This document shows positions 270 through 15,869 of a DNA stretch of 15,900 nucleotides, piece by piece (the first letter of the stretch is position 1; the number at the start of each line of letters is the position of its first letter). Under the pieces are notes generated by a model. The model searched no databases and was not told the DNA's origin. It was given only the letters and a program-made list of their open reading frames with translations. The position numbers were made by a program, and so were the translations under genes. The stretch comes from a virus (taxonomy: Duplodnaviria > Heunggongvirae > Uroviricota > Caudoviricetes), in IMG/VR virus record IMGVR_UViG_2695420863_000009; one strand, 5' to 3'.

Positions 270-271
270 GT

Positions 272-299
272 CCATAAGAAAGCCCCTCCGGAGAGGGGC
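272..299 (-). terminator. putative terminator hairpin downstream of the tRNA cluster
   Basis: 7-bp stem gcccctc/gaggggc (282-299) with cgga loop; on the minus strand it is followed by tttctt. The T-run is weak. Confidence 0.3.
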
Positions 300-536
300 T
301 GGAGAGTGGCGCTATGTGCCATTGCATGGTGCCGGGTGCCTCCCGGTGAATTCAGTACCAGCACCTGAATCCGCGATTATCCCATATACCTACTCGCTGA
401 TTGCCCCTCCGCACAGGGGGATTCACCATGCCAGTTTCTTTTAACAAACTCCCCGCAAACCAGACAACAGTCAACCGCCTGAATTGTGAGACATTTAAAA
501 AAAAGGCCCGCAAAAGCGAGCCAGGGAAAATAAGTG

Positions 537-613
537 TGGCGCGTTGTACTGGATTCGAACCAGTGACCGATTGCTTAGAAGGCAATTGCTCTGTCCGGCT
601 GAGCTAACAACGC
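537..613 (-). tRNA. tRNA-Arg (anticodon TCT)
   Basis: Reverse complement folds as a canonical cloverleaf: perfect 7-bp acceptor stem GCGTTGT/ACAACGC, D-stem GCTC/GAGC, anticodon loop CTTCTAA, T-loop TTCGAAT, 3' CCA encoded. It resembles argO of Stx-type lambdoid phages (recollection). Confidence 0.8.
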
Positions 614-626
614 AGGATACAGATAA

Positions 627-703
627 TGGACCGCCTTCGGGGACCCGAACTCCGCGCAACCAGCTTCGAAAGCTGGCGCTCTTTCCTGATGAGCTAATGG
701 CGG
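627..703 (-). tRNA. putative tRNA-Arg (anticodon TCG), possibly degenerate
   Basis: Cloverleaf-like: D-stem GCTC/GAGC, anticodon arm CCAGC-TTTCGAA-GCTGG, CCA encoded. The acceptor stem (A-A at 6-67) and T-stem (A-C) each carry one mismatch, and the T-loop TTCGGGT is atypical. It sits in the position argN holds in Stx-type phages. Confidence 0.5.
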
Positions 704-710
704 TATGTGA

Positions 711-786
711 TGGTGGCCCTTGCTGGATTTGAACCAGCGACCTGGCGATTATGAGTCGCTCGCTCTCACCACTGAGCTAAAGGGCC
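711..786 (-). tRNA. tRNA-Ile2 (lysidine type) or tRNA-Met, anticodon CAT
   Basis: Cloverleaf with acceptor GGCCCTT/AAGGGCC, anticodon loop CTCATAA, T-loop TTCAAAT, CCA encoded. It closely resembles E. coli ileX / phage ileZ as I recall them. Confidence 0.8.
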
Positions 787-5361: not shown

Positions 5362-5517
5362 TTACTCCTCAGGTTCGTAAGCTGTGAAGACAGCGACCTC
5401 CGTCTGGCCGGTTCGGACTCGTACCTCGCAGAGGTCTTTCCTCGTTACCAGTGCCGTCACTATGACGGTTAAACAGATGACGATCAGGGCGATTAACATC
5501 GCCTTTTGCTGCTTCAT
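5362..5517 (-). CDS. hokD: Hok/Gef-family type I toxin (small membrane peptide)
   Basis: 51-aa product MKQQKAMLIALIVICLTVIVTALVTRKDLCEVRVRTGQTEVAVFTAYEPEE, which is near-identical to my recollection of RelF/HokD. SD aaggag precedes the ATG at 5517. The track ORF extends 19 codons further upstream in frame. Confidence 0.85.
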   Translation of the reverse strand: MKQQKAMLIALIVICLTVIVTALVTRKDLCEVRVRTGQTEVAVFTAYEPEE

Positions 5518-5732
5518 AGCCTGCTTCTCCTTGCCTTTCGGCACGTAAGAGGCTAACCTACGTTTGTGAAGCATAGATTGGGCCTCAGATTAATGTTAAG
5601 CGTCTTGCAGGACGCGTAATGTTAACTGGGGCTTTTCTCTGTCTGCCTTACGGTGGCATGCCCGAGGCAGACAGCCTCAAGCACCCGCAGCAATTCTACT
5701 TAACTCTCGCTTTACCGCAAACCGTTTTTACC

Positions 5733-5754
5733 CGATATGGGAATTCCCATATCG
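5733..5754. promoter_or_regulatory. perfect 22-bp palindrome (candidate protein-binding site)
   Basis: cgatatgggaa|ttcccatatcg is exactly self-complementary and has no flanking T-run on either strand. It lies about 215 nt upstream of the hok ATG. Confidence 0.35.
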
Positions 5755-5762
5755 TAATGAAT

Positions 5763-5867
5763 TCAGTTCCCTAGTCGATCCATCAAAAACACAACCAGGC
5801 AGTAAACGCCCACAACAGCAACAACAGCCAGCGCACCTTCCATTGCCAGTGATATATCATCCGACAT
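5763..5867 (-). CDS. putative 34-aa hydrophobic micro-protein
   Basis: ATG preceded by a strong SD (aaggaggg, 4 nt). Product MSDDISLAMEGALAVVAVVGVYCLVVFLMDRLGN has one predicted TM helix. Below the track's 60-aa cut-off. Confidence 0.35.
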   Translation of the reverse strand: MSDDISLAMEGALAVVAVVGVYCLVVFLMDRLGN

Positions 5868-5908
5868 ATTCCCTCCTTTGGTGTTAATCCCGGCGAACGT
5901 TTTTACCC

Positions 5909-5986
5909 TCACCGACAAATAACATATACTAAAAAAGCGATAGCCATAGCAACGCCTGTAATTGCAAATGCTTCAGGCCAGTTCAT
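5909..5986 (-). CDS. putative 25-aa hydrophobic micro-protein
   Basis: ATG overlaps the stop of the upstream DUF551 gene (ATGA) and is preceded by aggagg. Product MNWPEAFAITGVAMAIAFLVYVICR. Confidence 0.3.
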   Translation of the reverse strand: MNWPEAFAITGVAMAIAFLVYVICR

Positions 5987-6852
5987 TGGCGCACCTCCTG
6001 CGGCGGTTCTGGTAGAGGCATCCAGTGTGATGGTATCCACGACGCACCAGGTATTATCCACCCATCATTAGCGTCAGGATGCCCCGGGATGTAAGTCGCC
6101 CATTTCATTCGCCAGTCACCTTTCCTGCCAAAATCCCTGGCAACAAGAACGGCTGTTTTGGTATCCGGCATTCGCTCACTACAGCTTATCCAACTATCCG
6201 GAGTTACCGGATAGTTGCCCGATAGTGCATTCTGCTCCAGTGATGCTTTTACAAACCACGCTGCCTGAACTATAACGCCATGAATCCAGCGCAAATCAGC
6301 ATCGCGATCTTTCTTTTTCATCTTTTCGCCACTTAAGGCCTTGCTTATGTGGCTGCGTGCCAGGTCTTCATGTAATTCCTTCGCCTCCTCAATGGTGAAA
6401 CCACCAGGCAGAAGAGCCGGAGTTACCGGAGAGCTGGTTGACGCTTCCGGGATTTTCCGAAAATTATTGGTTGACGAATCTTTATTTTCCCGAAAGTTTC
6501 CGGACTGAAACATGGCTTCGCGGCAATCGTTCCAGCCTGTAGCGTATGCAGCCGCTTTGCTGCTGCCTTCAACTGGCGCATCCTGCCAATACATTTCTTC
6601 CGGCACTATCGGCGCTGGAGGGGCGGCAAATAGATATCCGCCAAAGTCAGGAAGCTCTCTAATGGCCTGTACAAATTTTTGTTTGCCTACGTCAACCCCT
6701 AATGGGTAATGAGCTATAATCTTTGCCACCGGCTCTGCTTCCAGCGATGCCAGCGCAATCCGTGCCAGTTCCATTTGTTCACCACGGGTAAGCCCGTTTT
6801 CAAGCGGATTTTTAATGAACAATTCAATACGTTCTTTGGTAATAGTGGTCAT
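5983..6852 (-). CDS. DUF551 domain-containing phage protein
   Basis: 289 aa with SD aaggag before the ATG. The C-terminal ~70 aa (…PDSWISCSERMPDT…GWIIPGASWIPSHWMPLPEPP) match the DUF551 pattern as I recall it. Confidence 0.6.
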   Translation of the reverse strand: MTTITKERIELFIKNPLENGLTRGEQMELARIALASLEAEPVAKIIAHYPLGVDVGKQKFVQAIRELPDFGGYLFAAPPAPIVPEEMYWQDAPVEGSSKAAAYATGWNDCREAMFQSGNFRENKDSSTNNFRKIPEASTSSPVTPALLPGGFTIEEAKELHEDLARSHISKALSGEKMKKKDRDADLRWIHGVIVQAAWFVKASLEQNALSGNYPVTPDSWISCSERMPDTKTAVLVARDFGRKGDWRMKWATYIPGHPDANDGWIIPGASWIPSHWMPLPEPPQEVRQ

Positions 6853-7126: not shown

Positions 7127-7377
7127 ATCAGTTTTCCTTATACGGATTAATTTTATTGTGCAGTGTGTTGAATGACGCCCATACCACGTCGTTATACAAT
7201 TCAATAACTGGCTCAATTATTTTTCCGATTATCCAGACTAGGATTAACGGGGATATCGGTATCATCAACACGATAAACAGAATGAGAAACAGAAATTCTG
7301 TTGTTCTACTCTTTCGCGGATATTTTTTCTAAATAATGTGACCATTCATTACCGCCCTTTCGGGCGGCCTCCTGACA

Positions 7378-7590
7378 TTAATCGTTGTGATAACTCATAG
7401 CTTCATTTGCAGCATCAACTGGATCAACCTCCCTCCAGCAATAATTTGGGTCGGCTCCTTCAGGCGTCCACGGTTCTAATTCATTTTTTGCCGCATTCTC
7501 ATCGCCAGTAATTTTAAAAATCTGCTCAGAGAATTTTCTTGCCCACTCGTTATATTTTTCCGCATTAATGGCTTTCTGTGTATTTAACAT
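7378..7590 (-). CDS. hypothetical phage protein
   Basis: 70-aa ORF with SD ggagg before the ATG. A GC hairpin with GAAA loop (7355-7372) sits just downstream of the stop. Confidence 0.5.
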   Translation of the reverse strand: MLNTQKAINAEKYNEWARKFSEQIFKITGDENAAKNELEPWTPEGADPNYCWREVDPVDAANEAMSYHND

Positions 7591-7640
7591 AAATACACCT
7601 CCAGTTAAGGATTAGATTTTATTTACAGCGCTAAATTTAT

Positions 7641-14488: not shown

Positions 14489-15019
14489 GGTCAGGTGGAG
14501 TGCGTGCGCCGGACACGGGTGAGCATCCGGCACTGACAGTTTACTGAAAGGATATGTCCCTGAAAAGTCAGGGCATAACGCGAAAGCGCACGGCGAAATT
14601 GGTCTCTCTGTACGGTGTCGTTAAATTTAGTTCGACCGTGCGCTTCCGGTTGTGGCACTCCGCGAAATGGCGCGGCGGTAAGTATGGCTGGGGTTTCCTC
14701 CATTGCTCCAGAAAATGCACCGGGTTGTCAGGTTGACCATACGCTTAAGTGACAACCCCGCTACAACGCCCTCTGTTATCAATTTTCTGGTGACATTTGG
14801 CGGTATCAGTTTTACTCCGTGACTGCTCTGCCGCCCTTTTTAAAGTGAATTTTGTGATGCGGTGAATGCGGCTATGCGCACGCGGAACAGTTAAAGCAGT
14901 AAGGCGGTATTTTACGGGCGTAACGAGCATCAACTAACCCGGCGTTAATTGTTAACTGGTTAACGTCACCTGGAGGCACCAGGCACTGCATCACAAAATT
15001 CATTGTTGAGGACGCGATA
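14489..15019 (+). repeat. repeat copy 2: structured leader + dicF + dicB 5'-UTR
   Basis: Aligns with copy 1 across its length with scattered substitutions and a small insertion. Confidence 0.8.
14784..14836 (+). ncRNA. dicF: DicF-like sRNA, copy 2 (G-to-A variant)
   Basis: Same 53 nt as copy 1 except A at position 12 (GTGACATTTGG vs GTGACGTTTGG); followed by TTTTT. Confidence 0.75.
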
Positions 15020-15550: not shown

Positions 15551-15574
15551 NNNNNNNNNNNNNNNNNNNNNNNN
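15551..15574. other. assembly gap (24 N)
   Basis: Run of N; the sequence resumes inside the leader repeat. Confidence 0.95.
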
Positions 15575-15869
15575 GACACCGGGTTGTCAGGTTGACCATA
15601 CGCTTAAGTGACAACCCCGCTGCAACGCCCTCTGTTATCAATTTTCTGGTGACGTTTGGCGGTATCAGTTTTACTCCGTGACTGCTCTGCCGCCCTTTTT
15701 AAAGTGAATTTTGTGATGCGGTGAATGCGGCTGAGCGCACGCGGAACAGTTAAAACCAAAAACAGTGTTATGGGGGGATTCTCTGTATCCGGCGTTAATT
15801 GTTAACTGGTTAACGTCACCTGGAGGCACCAGGCACCGCATCACAAAATTCATTGTTGAGGACGCGATA
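15575..15869 (+). repeat. repeat copy 3 (partial leader + dicF + dicB 5'-UTR)
   Basis: Identical to copy 1 over the shared region 12785-13032, then continues into a dicB start. Confidence 0.8.
15643..15695 (+). ncRNA. dicF: DicF-like sRNA, copy 3
   Basis: Identical to copy 1; followed by TTTTT. Confidence 0.75.

Follow-up and report, generated by a model that had tools for sequence, protein, structure and literature searches.

Two probable micro-genes for single-pass inner-membrane peptides in the early accessory region of a lambdoid prophage

Organization of the locus

The window analysed here is a 15,900-nt stretch of DNA from a virus of the Caudoviricetes (IMG/VR record IMGVR_UViG_2695420863_000009). 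It includes the early accessory region of a lambdoid E. coli prophage, in which the gene order was cro, ydaT and, further along, DUF551, ORF1, ORF2, hok/sok, DUF968, rusA, and Q; the early region that holds ORF1 and ORF2 is non-essential and accessory. The ORF list and the sequence confirmed the two hydrophobic micro-ORFs of an earlier note and showed both on the minus strand: ORF1 encodes 25 aa (MNWPEAFAITGVAMAIAFLVYVICR, 5909-5986), and ORF2 encodes 34 aa (MSDDISLAMEGALAVVAVVGVYCLVVFLMDRLGN, 5763-5867). Upstream of them is an ORF of 289 aa on the same strand (5983-6852), a mosaic early gene whose C-terminal DUF551 domain (residues 220-285) was matched by Pfam PF04448 with E=6.7e-19 and 69 bits, against a gathering cut-off of 22. 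On identical RefSeq DNA, PGAP splits this ORF and calls only its final 62 aa as a DUF551 protein. The TGA stop of the DUF551 gene (5983-5985) and the ATG of ORF1 (5984-5986) form the ATGA overlap that the note had described, found at 5983-5986. The strong ribosome-binding sites reported for the two ORFs were also present. The Shine-Dalgarno AGGAGG of ORF1 (5994-5999, minus strand) is held in the last codons of the DUF551 coding sequence, 7 nt 5' of the ATG, and the AGGAGG core of ORF2 (5872-5877, minus strand), part of the full stretch AAGGAGGG at 5871-5878, lies 4 nt before its ATG.

An intact hok/mok/sok locus lies downstream of ORF2 on the minus strand (5362-5686) and consists of mok (5362-5574), hok (5362-5517), and the leader and sok region (5512-5686). 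The hok gene was matched by Pfam HOK_GEF (E=1.5e-22) and sok by Rfam RF01794 (117.5 bits); PGAP names the gene hokD. A repeat search detected two 100% identical copies of an 11-bp direct repeat 175 nt apart, one directly past the ORF1 stop (5898-5908; CGTTTTTACCC on the plus strand, GGGTAAAAACG on the coding strand) and the other directly 5' of the hok promoter region (5723-5733). These repeats flank a 175-bp cassette, which carries ORF2 and separates ORF1 from the hok promoter. The cassette is absent from 933W, and alignment with that phage confirmed the cassette edges. Directly past the ORF2 stop is a perfect 22-nt palindrome (CGATATGGGAATTCCCATATCG, 5733-5754) with 11+11 nt of 100% complementarity, which as RNA gives a 9-bp hairpin without a U-tract. 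The RNA fold of 5690-5775 had an energy of -22.3 kcal/mol (z = -3.07).

The best 17-residue Kyte-Doolittle window was 2.48 for ORF1, 2.94 for ORF2, and 3.22 for Hok, in agreement with the one hydrophobic helix per ORF that the note had predicted. Of the 186 ORFs of 20-60 codons that start with ATG on either strand of the window, 6 had a strong Shine-Dalgarno core and 6 had a comparably hydrophobic stretch; the two features occurred together only in ORF1, ORF2, and hok.

The ORF1 family

ORF1 shares with its relatives the consensus M-[TNSG]-W-P-[ED]-A-F-x3-G-x-A-x-A-x-A-...-Y-x-x-C-R-W-G, with a typical length of 27 aa. The ORF1 of the window fits this family, having the M-x-W-P-[ED]-A-F cap followed by a hydrophobic helix with G11 and A13/A15/A17. 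A tblastn search found the family in 92 phage records; among them are 933W, VT2-Sakai, BP-4795, Av-05 (a virulent phage of the Vequintavirinae), and SJ46, which is P1-like. When viral contigs were scanned with a degenerate DNA pattern, 128 of the 130 hits were hydrophobic ORFs of 19-34 aa. Of 5426 complete E. coli genomes, 718 encoded an ORF1-type peptide, and Shiga-toxin-producing strains account for many of these. The E. coli K-12 prophages CPS-53, Rac, and Qin contained neither ORF1 nor ORF2. Relatives of the MGWP[ED]AF type occurred in contigs of 40-62% GC, where they sit after DUF669 and Rv2179c-like exonuclease genes and start -1 to +8 nt from the upstream stop. Of the 20 matches in a genome-wide taxonomic scan, roughly 9 would be expected by chance by our estimate; Escherichia, Shigella, and Achromobacter (a homologue) were the only sources of clear members, and a Planctomycetota MAG provided one plausible member. 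ORF1-type peptides on two very short contigs, labelled Xanthomonas and Acinetobacter, were of the E. coli phage type and look like contamination. The family spans temperate and virulent phages of enterobacteria and contigs of 40-66% GC.

The length was exactly 27 codons in 145 of 171 instances, and this form was represented by 60 distinct DNA sequences. Part of the set had been collected with a search pattern fixing codons 1-7. Over codons 8-27, to which that pattern does not extend, pN/pS was 0.40 in frame versus 0.72 and 1.74 in the other two frames, for sequences that share descent. Over the same codons, entropy was 0.90 at the third position versus 0.51 and 0.30 at the others. G11, A13, A15, A17, R25, and G27 were maintained despite synonymous codon changes, and the alignment showed that homology stops at the stop codon.

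No fitting model for ORF1 was found in Pfam, NCBIfam, or PHROGs, and a comparison of ORF1, ORF2, and 18 relatives with these collections gave only sub-threshold noise (PTR2, KdpF, SecE, TRI9, and DUF883_C). Full-text literature searches with the peptide strings and WP accession numbers gave no match, and neither peptide was present in the accessible part of the supplements to an Enterobacteriaceae microproteome preprint. ORF1 is a member of a widespread phage micro-protein family that is absent from curated databases. One 90% cluster joined ORF1 with 121-aa DUF551 proteins; its long members lacked the peptide, and a DUF551-ORF1 fusion was rejected as a clustering artefact. A lipoprotein was also rejected, as the residues before C24 (Y-S-I; Y-V-I in the window), read by eye, form no lipobox.

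Coupling of ORF1 to the upstream gene

In 7 of 7 annotated phage records inspected, the start of the ORF1-family member shared 4 nt or 1 nt with the upstream stop, and the upstream proteins differed among these records. Across all inspected members the start ranged from a 4-nt overlap to 8 nt past the upstream stop, and the preceding genes were DUF551 or Ea22-like genes, a DUF669 gene, an exonuclease gene, and others. A purine-rich GGAGG-like motif was retained at the Shine-Dalgarno position across relatives with unrelated upstream genes. Because the gene coupled to ORF1 varies, the selected unit appears to be the micro-protein itself. Ribosomes ending the upstream gene would reinitiate on ORF1 as the last coupled cistron. 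Termination-reinitiation at ATGA or TAATG stop/start overlaps was reportedly described by Huber et al. in Nat Commun in 2019. Like such cistrons, members of the ORF1 family start at the upstream stop and have their Shine-Dalgarno inside the upstream gene; unlike them, it is the downstream cistron that is conserved and the upstream gene that is variable, and the coupling is predicted. Of the predicted microprotein ORFs in one preprint that run in the direction of the upstream gene, about 13% start no more than 10 nt from its stop (PMC11188072). A programmed -1 frameshift fusing ORF1 to DUF551 was rejected: no slippery heptamer was seen by eye within the final 75 nt, and family members differ in how far upstream the nearest in-frame stop lies (0 to 47 codons).

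The ORF1 allele of the window

In the window, TGG is changed to TGA at codon 26, and ORF1 ends after R25 without the W26-G27 of the C-R-W-G motif. W26 was present in 59 of the 60 distinct DNA sequences of the family; the window ORF1 is therefore a truncated allele and an atypical member, and the missing residues mean that it may be impaired. We also analysed 70 ORF1 loci sampled via ORF2, that is, irrespective of the state of ORF1. A17D was found in 24 of these loci, W26C in 5, loss of W26-G27 as in the window in 7, W3R with a 2-codon deletion in 7, and a stop at codon 3 in 1. The ORF1 of Shigella phage POCJ13 likewise has a stop at codon 3. To judge from these sequences, the radical alleles in the sub-clade of the window point to relaxed constraint in these defective prophages.

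The window ORF1 could then be a decaying remnant, open by inheritance and no longer functional in a defective prophage. The absence of both W26 and G27 agrees with such decay, as does the alteration of an otherwise conserved position in 44 of the 70 unbiased copies of the same sub-clade; on identical DNA, PGAP moreover marks a frameshift in the adjacent DUF4014 gene and places partial fragments within the DUF551 ORF. However, the frame, start overlap, and Shine-Dalgarno of ORF1 are all intact in the window, its transmembrane helix and WPEAF cap are unchanged, and the truncated allele is common to several lineages, the 7 loci that carry it including O111 and ML35. We consider decay of the window copy rather unlikely.

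Identity, translation, and conservation of ORF2

ORF2 was 100% identical to the RefSeq hypothetical protein WP_001278454.1, which is annotated on 100% identical DNA. The earlier note had described both ORFs as unannotated. This holds for ORF1, for which PGAP makes no call on the inspected RefSeq sequences identical to the window, but not for ORF2, which was already known, being annotated in RefSeq and reported as translated in 2017. A tblastn search of phage and plasmid collections with ORF2 gave no match, and a large protein search with the 51-aa extended ORF2 frame returned only E. coli hypothetical proteins. ORF2 was confined to E. coli prophages; 716 of the 5426 complete E. coli genomes carried it, and the median copy number was 2.

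ORF2 also corresponds to the C-terminal 34 aa of the 54-aa XECs145 of E. coli O157:H7 Sakai, with 33 of 34 residues identical (V16I), and XECs145 is likewise flanked by a DUF551 gene and by hokD. Hucker et al. (2017, PLoS One) scored XECs145 as translated and predicted an inner-membrane protein with one helix (PMC5597208). Ribo-seq in LB gave 79.1 RPKM for RNA and 346.1 RPKM for footprints, with an RCV of 4.35 and a coverage of 0.99, although ORF2 is multi-copy in O157 and the assignment of reads is therefore imperfect; the mean RCV of short annotated genes was 1.55 (PMC5597208). The ribosome profiling that the note had proposed as a check thus provides translation support for a near-identical form of ORF2. 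XECs145 was given 54 aa, from an upstream alternative start, because that study always chose the longest possible ORF; it set a minimum of 30 aa, which left out ORFs as short as the 25-aa ORF1 (PMC5597208). The extra 20 N-terminal codons overlap the 3' end of ORF1. The conserved Shine-Dalgarno and ATG of the sequence point to the 34-aa form of ORF2, which is also the call made by PGAP.

The collected ORF2 copies form two types, A and B, which differ by about 26% in DNA and have the C-terminal LMDRL motif in common. All 125 copies of both types were intact with a Shine-Dalgarno; its context was maintained in 71 of 71 type-A copies, and the start was GTG in 6 copies and ATG in the rest. Variable sites were distributed over the three codon positions as 3/2/8 in type A and 2/0/8 in type B, so that 16 of 23 fell at third positions (binomial p = 4e-4). 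The A-vs-B pN/pS was 0.51, which does not distinguish the frame at this low diversity with two clades only. The reading frames of ORF1 and ORF2 are both conserved in homologous regions, the comparison that the note had itself put forward.

An intact hok gene was found just downstream in 107 of the 110 ORF2 copies with enough flank. The distance from ORF2 to hok was fixed at 243-247 nt in type A and 210-211 nt in type B; hok of the window begins 245 nt past the ORF2 stop, like other type-A copies. The palindrome belongs to the type-A cassette only, and none follows type-B ORF2.

Alternative explanations

Translation as such might matter rather than the peptides: acting in cis, the ORFs would either protect or adjust the adjacent hok promoter and leader, or determine transcription polarity where the upstream operon ends. 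A small ORF does end directly 5' of the hok promoter region in three arrangements, with hok beginning 210 nt past the ORF1 stop in 933W, likewise 210-211 nt past type-B ORF2, and 243-247 nt from type-A ORF2 with its palindrome. The near-constant linkage of ORF2 to hok (107/110) and the stable hairpin at the end of the type-A cassette fit the same idea. However, close linkage is expected by proximity alone for a 105-nt gene 40-80 nt from a promoter. In addition, ORF1 had no downstream hok in 63 of 146 contexts with enough flank, it is present in virulent and P1-like phages, and its amino acid sequence is kept through synonymous change. For ORF2, the third-position bias of its variation and the conservation of LMDRL across two clades likewise argue for the peptide. 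A purely cis-acting role is improbable.

Equally improbable, in our estimate, is that ORF1, ORF2, or both encode a type I membrane toxin that is silenced by an RNA antitoxin and kills or arrests the cell when expressed. The earlier note had suggested a membrane toxin, and like Hok/Gef (PF01848) the two are small, strongly hydrophobic prophage peptides with a single helix; a bona fide Hok toxin adjoins them, and ORF2 is almost always linked to a hok locus. On the opposite strand, facing the ORF2 start and the ORF1 3' end, are two weak pairs of sigma-70-like hexamers (5843-5870 and 5902-5930) from which antisense RNAs could in principle be transcribed. But these pairs match at only 9 of 12 positions, the region has 3 promoter-like sites versus 0.8 +/- 1.0 expected, and the hexamers fall in the N-terminal part of ORF2, not common to type B. 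Hok/Gef models (Pfam PF01848 and NCBIfam PRK09738) matched neither ORF and none of 18 scanned relatives, and no other toxin model in Pfam, NCBIfam, or PHROGs matched either ORF. The Rfam gathering scan detected one antitoxin RNA, sok (5512-5686), which belongs to hok. Unlike Hok/Gef, ORF1 and ORF2 show no sequence similarity to that family and have no mok-like overlapping leader ORF, no sok-like RNA in the Rfam scan, and no counterpart of the roughly 25-residue polar periplasmic tail of Hok with its conserved Cys. ORF1, unlike type I toxins, would have neither its own transcript nor a long leader, being coupled to an ordinary upstream gene. ORF2 is actively translated during growth and, in exponential cultures of Sakai in LB, ranked with the small ORFs that are translated best; its RCV of 4.35 is incompatible with a potent, repressed toxin.

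A lysis protein (holin, antiholin, or spanin) was rejected: both ORFs are early-region genes flanked by the replication genes and by Q, no holin or spanin family in Pfam or PHROGs matched either of them, and on identical DNA the annotated holin lies some 8 kb further downstream than ORF2. Finally, it is most unlikely that the conserved ORF1 block is a non-coding RNA or DNA element (a structured RNA, or a recombination or binding site), since, although its first 21 nt are strongly conserved as DNA (CCT in 57/60 and GCA in 54/60 distinct sequences), the consensus fold by RNAalifold had next to no structure (-3.4 kcal/mol, with a covariation term of -0.12), no Rfam match was found at ORF1, variation is concentrated at third positions with 27 codons in 145/171 copies, and distant relatives in contigs of 40-66% GC retain the peptide and not the DNA.

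Proposed roles of ORF1 and ORF2

ORF1 and ORF2 are probably two genuine, unrelated micro-genes of the lambdoid prophage early accessory region, each encoding a single-pass inner-membrane peptide, and two accessory inner-membrane peptides is the best reading of the locus. In the predicted topology of ORF1, the WPEAF cap would lie at the periplasmic interface and the R-W-G end in the cytoplasm, and the small-xxx-small faces G11/A15 and A13/A17 would pack against another transmembrane helix. Given this topology and these packing faces, ORF1 is most likely a small accessory subunit or modulator of an inner-membrane protein, and it would modulate a host or phage protein of this kind early in the phage programme. 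A role of ORF1 and ORF2 as modulators of membrane complexes is possible. ORF2 would behave as a lysogen-expressed 'moron' membrane peptide and not as a silenced toxin; it is physically, and perhaps functionally, tied to hok/sok.

KdpF, CydX, AcrZ, MgtS, MgtU, and MgrB are small regulatory peptides of the inner membrane of enterobacteria, encoded on the chromosome next to their partner genes. They have 25-50 aa, one transmembrane helix, and small-xxx-small packing faces and serve as a working model for ORF1, which, unlike them, follows soluble phage early proteins of varied type. Of these families, those represented in NCBIfam gave no significant match: the KdpF model TIGR02115 gave 14.7 bits versus a cut-off of 26.85, and the MgtU model matched only Hok, weakly. 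Weak partial matches between ORF1-type peptides and phrog_38566, phrog_4612, and phrog_33078 (E 0.005-0.09, none significant) aligned to the C-terminal part of profiles of 46-57 aa with no function assigned. Such matches would be expected if some phage annotations had called ORF1 with a spurious N-terminal extension.

A bolder proposal, which we put forward only tentatively, is that ORF1 represents an uncatalogued phage micro-protein family of about 27 aa that is always coupled and has a conserved inner-membrane target in the host, and that ORF2 is a component of hok/sok. The ORF1 family might, for example, block superinfection or re-tune a transporter or sensor early in infection, and ORF2 might be a third, protein component of a hok/sok variant, for example modulating the insertion or toxicity of Hok.

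Small hydrophobic phage proteins are systematically overlooked by gene callers, and ORF1 offers a clean, testable case, a peptide conserved across lambdoid, Stx, P1-like, and virulent phages. If ORF1 targets a host membrane protein, it would be one of the few phage micro-proteins whose host targets are defined, and DUF551 and Ea22-type accessory operons would gain a component that faces the membrane. ORF2 is of lesser weight on its own; its near-absolute linkage to hok/sok and its strong translation in uninduced O157:H7 make it an obvious candidate for a part in the biology of hok. In practical terms, genome annotation should include ORF1 and place the start of ORF2 at the ATG of the 34-aa form.

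Layout and genomic setting of the two micro-ORFs

Both micro-ORFs lie on the minus strand, following a DUF551 ORF of 289 codons (5983-6852, minus strand) with a C-terminal match to Pfam PF04448 (E=6.7e-19). ORF1 (5909-5986, minus strand; 25 codons, MNWPEAFAITGVAMAIAFLVYVICR) begins with an ATG at 5984-5986 that overlaps the DUF551 TGA stop at 5983-5985, and its Shine-Dalgarno sequence, AGGAGG, is located 7 nt 5' of this ATG (5994-5999, minus strand). ORF2 (5763-5867, minus strand; 34 codons, MSDDISLAMEGALAVVAVVGVYCLVVFLMDRLGN) starts 41 bases 3' of the ORF1 stop and is preceded on the same strand by the signal AAGGAGGG, in which the AGGAGG core is 4 nt from the ATG. The two peptides show strong hydrophobicity, with best 17-residue Kyte-Doolittle windows of 2.48 for ORF1 and 2.94 for ORF2. 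A strong Shine-Dalgarno core was combined with a hydrophobic helix in only three of the 186 ATG-started ORFs of 20-60 codons in the window, namely ORF1, ORF2 and hok. Re-reading of the sequence confirmed the coordinates of both ORFs in the earlier note; its description is therefore correct, and the signals exceed chance. An intact hok/mok/sok locus (sok at 5512-5686; Pfam HOK_GEF, E=1.5e-22; Rfam RF01794, 117.5 bits) lies directly 3' of ORF2.

Several complete E. coli genomes, such as that of strain ML35, carry the same DNA with 100% identity; in the latter, the gene order given by PGAP is LexA-family repressor, cro, ydaT, replication-region gene, DUF977, DUF4406, ..., DUF551, 34-aa hypothetical protein, hokD, DUF968, rusA, Q, ..., holin. 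This order on identical DNA places ORF1 and ORF2 within the early-right accessory region of a lambdoid prophage, the counterpart of the 'nin' region of lambda. The DUF551 ORF is unbroken in the window (7149-8018 in comparison locus L272), and PGAP divides it, on 100% identical DNA, into two 'incomplete' pseudogene fragments and a 62-aa DUF551 protein, apparently an artefact of annotating a mosaic gene.

ORF1 belongs to a widespread phage family

When the 25-aa ORF1 peptide was used as a tblastn query, 92 phage records were matched, including the Stx phages 933W and VT2-Sakai, BP-4795 and ArgO145; homologues were also found in Av-05, a virulent phage of the Vequintavirinae, and in SJ46, a P1-like phage of Salmonella. 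Seven phage records were inspected; in each of them the homologue was without annotation and its ATG overlapped the upstream stop codon, as ATGA or, in SJ46, as TAATG. An intact homologue of 24-27 aa was present in six. The upstream proteins differ at their C-termini (...PEPPQEVNQ, ...NIEQKVNQ, ...LISVEDVLR and ...AMLKKKGMNQ). In Shigella phage POCJ13 (locus L002, 1514-1597), codon 3 is changed from TGG to a TAG stop.

Viral contigs were scanned with a degenerate DNA motif that encodes M-x-W-P-E/D-A-F and begins with ATGA, which gave at least 130 matches; among the matches listed, 128 were hydrophobic ORFs of 19-34 aa. As a check for a pattern artefact, the motif was rescanned with a non-A base after the ATG. 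This complete scan gave 15 matches, 14 of which were hydrophobic ORFs of 21-30 aa (13 with MGWP[ED]AF starts and one with MSWPEAF) from contigs of 40-62% GC. Ten of these relatives were checked for neighbours; an upstream ORF was detected for eight, and all eight started -1 to +8 nt from its stop. The genes 5' of non-ATGA relatives include DUF669 and an Rv2179c-like exonuclease, which again suggests a location among the early or replication genes. When one genome per species was scanned, Achromobacter yielded a clear further member and a Planctomycetota MAG a plausible one. Of 5426 complete E. coli genomes, 718 carry window-type ORF1. ORF1 peptides were also encoded in two very short contigs of non-enterobacterial assemblies, L242 (431 bp, titled Xanthomonas pisi) and L251 (369 bp, titled Acinetobacter idrijaensis); the peptides do not differ from alleles of E. 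coli phages (933W type and MSWPEAFTTVGIVMAAALGLYSICRWW type), and the contigs are probably contamination.

ORF1 was exactly 27 codons long in 145 of the 171 instances from all loci collected by then, and its diversity amounted to 60 different DNA sequences and 39 different peptides. The selection analysis was limited to codons 8-27, which lie outside the constraint of the search pattern. Over these codons pN/pS was 0.40 in frame, compared with 0.72 and 1.74 in the other frames, and third-position entropy was 0.90 versus 0.51 and 0.30. The residues G11, A13, A15, A17, Y21, C24, R25, W26 and G27 were near-invariant, with three or four synonymous codons used for each of G11, R25 and G27. Homology ended at the stop codon on the 3' side and just past the Shine-Dalgarno sequence on the 5' side. 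Lack of frame conservation had been named beforehand as a refuting outcome, and by these values the ORF1 frame is kept.

No significant Pfam, NCBIfam or PHROG model match was obtained for ORF1, its peptide strings had no match in full-text literature, and it is named 'hypothetical protein' in a few GenBank entries. ORF1 is a small hydrophobic phage protein whose family was found in no curated library or searchable literature. The interest of this family lies in its breadth and in its invariable coupling to whichever gene precedes it.

The ORF1 allele of the window

ORF1 of the window has lost W26 and G27 of the family end, ...C-R-W-G, by a TGG to TGA change. Allele frequencies were taken from 70 loci retrieved via ORF2, a sample unbiased for ORF1. 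Copies of 27 codons with all conserved positions unchanged accounted for 26 of the 70, copies of 27 codons with A17D, a charge inside the helix, for 24, and copies of 27 codons with W26C for five. The 25-codon allele of the window was found in seven copies, W3R with a two-codon deletion in seven, and a stop at codon 3 in one. Thus, 27 codons were kept in 55 of 70 copies and the frame was open in 69. The A17D allele, with Asp for the conserved Ala17 within the helix, is that of O157:H7 PA20 (locus L012, 799-882); together with the codon-3 stop of POCJ13, it points to decay or altered function of ORF1 in some lineages. From sequence comparison, the frequent radical alleles suggest relaxed constraint in the ORF1-ORF2-hok lineage of largely defective prophages. 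We therefore hold with high confidence that the ORF1 family is real, and the function of the window's own copy is uncertain. That this copy is a decaying remnant is favoured by the same survey, and we consider it possible though doubtful.

Translation and conservation of ORF2

Of 5426 complete E. coli genomes, 716 contain ORF2, and the median copy number is two. The earlier note had called both micro-ORFs unannotated, which is true of ORF1, left out by PGAP on identical DNA, but not of ORF2, which is hypothetical protein WP_001278454.1. XECs145, a translated ORF of O157:H7 Sakai, differs from ORF2 at only one of its C-terminal 34 residues (33 of 34 matching). In LB, XECs145 had 79.1 RPKM of RNA, 346.1 RPKM of footprints, a ribosome coverage value (RCV) of 4.35 and a coverage of 0.99, where the mean RCV of short annotated genes was 1.55; in BHI the values were 121.3 RPKM, 150.1 RPKM, 1.14 and 0.84, and under cold and osmotic stress its translation collapsed (RCV 0.01) (Hucker et al., 2017; PMC5597208). 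These footprints of a near-identical copy support translation of ORF2. XECs145 was defined from an upstream alternative start, giving 54 aa (PMC5597208); the conserved Shine-Dalgarno sequence and start codon point to a form of 34 aa.

A pattern scan of viral contigs for ORF2 gave two clades, type A, that of the window, and type B (MLVLKCALAIAAVMAIYCLAVVLMDRLSD), in which AGGAGG precedes a GTG start codon; over the C-terminal part common to both types, DNA identity is about 74%. All 125 copies were intact. Variable sites at the three codon positions numbered 3/2/8 in type A and 2/0/8 in type B, so that 16 of 23 were third positions (p = 4e-4), and the frame of ORF2 is likewise conserved; pN/pS between the types was 0.51, over an alignment too short to inform. 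No ORF2 homologue beyond E. coli was found by phage and plasmid tblastn or by protein search with the extended frame. In E. coli UMNF18 (locus L011, about 960-1055), a 29-aa type-B ORF2 with GTG start and AGGAGG lies directly 5' of hokD; the 5' neighbour of this ORF2 is encoded on the other strand, so type-B ORF2 must have its own promoter. Type-B ORF2 was without PGAP annotation in four of four listed genomes. Both the annotation of ORF2 and its translation had been reported before; the only new details are its linkage to hok and the structure of its cassette.

The ORF2 cassette and hok

Intact hok was found at a fixed distance in 107 of the 110 ORF2 copies with enough flank (243-247 nt in type A and 210-211 nt in type B), and the hok leader was still present in the other three. 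ORF1 was followed by ORF2 and hok in 51 cases, by hok directly in 29 (as in 933W) and by neither in 63. Alignment of the window, 933W and a type-B locus showed near-identity from the hok promoter region onwards, and the ORF1 stop of 933W occupies the same place relative to hok as the type-B ORF2 stop. The type-A segment is a 175-bp insertion between 11-bp direct repeats (5898-5908 and 5723-5733); at the cassette end, beside one repeat, is a perfect 22-nt palindrome (5733-5754) with an EcoRI site at its centre (CGATATGGGAATTCCCATATCG), a candidate terminator-like hairpin, recombination scar or binding site. We read these arrangements as ordinary phage mosaicism around the hok module; ORF2 and Hok could conceivably be linked in function. 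On the plus strand, two weak sigma-70-like hexamer pairs (9/12 positions) are antisense to the start of ORF2 (5843-5870) and to the 3' end of ORF1 (5902-5930); they are not conserved in type-B loci.

Probable roles of the micro-ORFs

We consider it fairly probable that ORF1 and ORF2 are accessory inner-membrane peptides and not toxins. For ORF1, the observed basis is the stop/start overlap, the Shine-Dalgarno placement, the conservation at the amino acid level and the hydrophobic helix; for ORF2, it is the hydrophobic helix, its own ribosome-binding site and the published footprints of a near-identical copy. Ribosomes finishing the upstream gene would reinitiate on ORF1, and the peptide would be inserted with its acidic WPEAF cap outside and its R-W-G end inside. 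Its G11/A15 and A13/A17 faces could then pack against another transmembrane helix, and ORF1 may act in the manner of the small accessory peptides by which transporters and sensors are tuned. ORF2 would be a 'moron'-type membrane peptide expressed in the lysogen.

The earlier note had suggested membrane toxins. A type I toxin is unlikely, because neither ORF matches a family model (Pfam, NCBIfam, PHROG), the Rfam scan gave no antitoxin RNA for either (sok belongs to hok), the operon arrangement of ORF1 is unsuited, and ORF2 is highly translated in growth (XECs145 data, PMC5597208). Translation acting in cis on hok would fit the position adjoining the hok promoter, but ORF1 often occurs without hok and is conserved at the peptide level, and we give this reading equally little weight. 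It is very improbable that the conserved ORF1 block is an RNA or DNA element, since RNAalifold found no conserved structure over ORF1 (-3.4 kcal/mol) and Rfam gave no match.

Other features of the window

Within 3 kb there are three DicF sRNA matches, each of about 77 bits (12851-12902, 14785-14836 and 15644-15695, plus strand), in repeated segments, of which the copies at 12782-13032 and 15575-15825 are 100% identical and each abut a run of N (13033-13043 and 15551-15574). The region may therefore be stitched, masked or mis-assembled and not a true triple dicF array. An STnc100 sRNA match (138 bits; 270-460, minus strand) and three tRNA genes (540-786, minus strand), called tRNA-Ile, tRNA-Arg and tRNA-Arg by PGAP on identical DNA, lie 3' of the Q-like antiterminator region.
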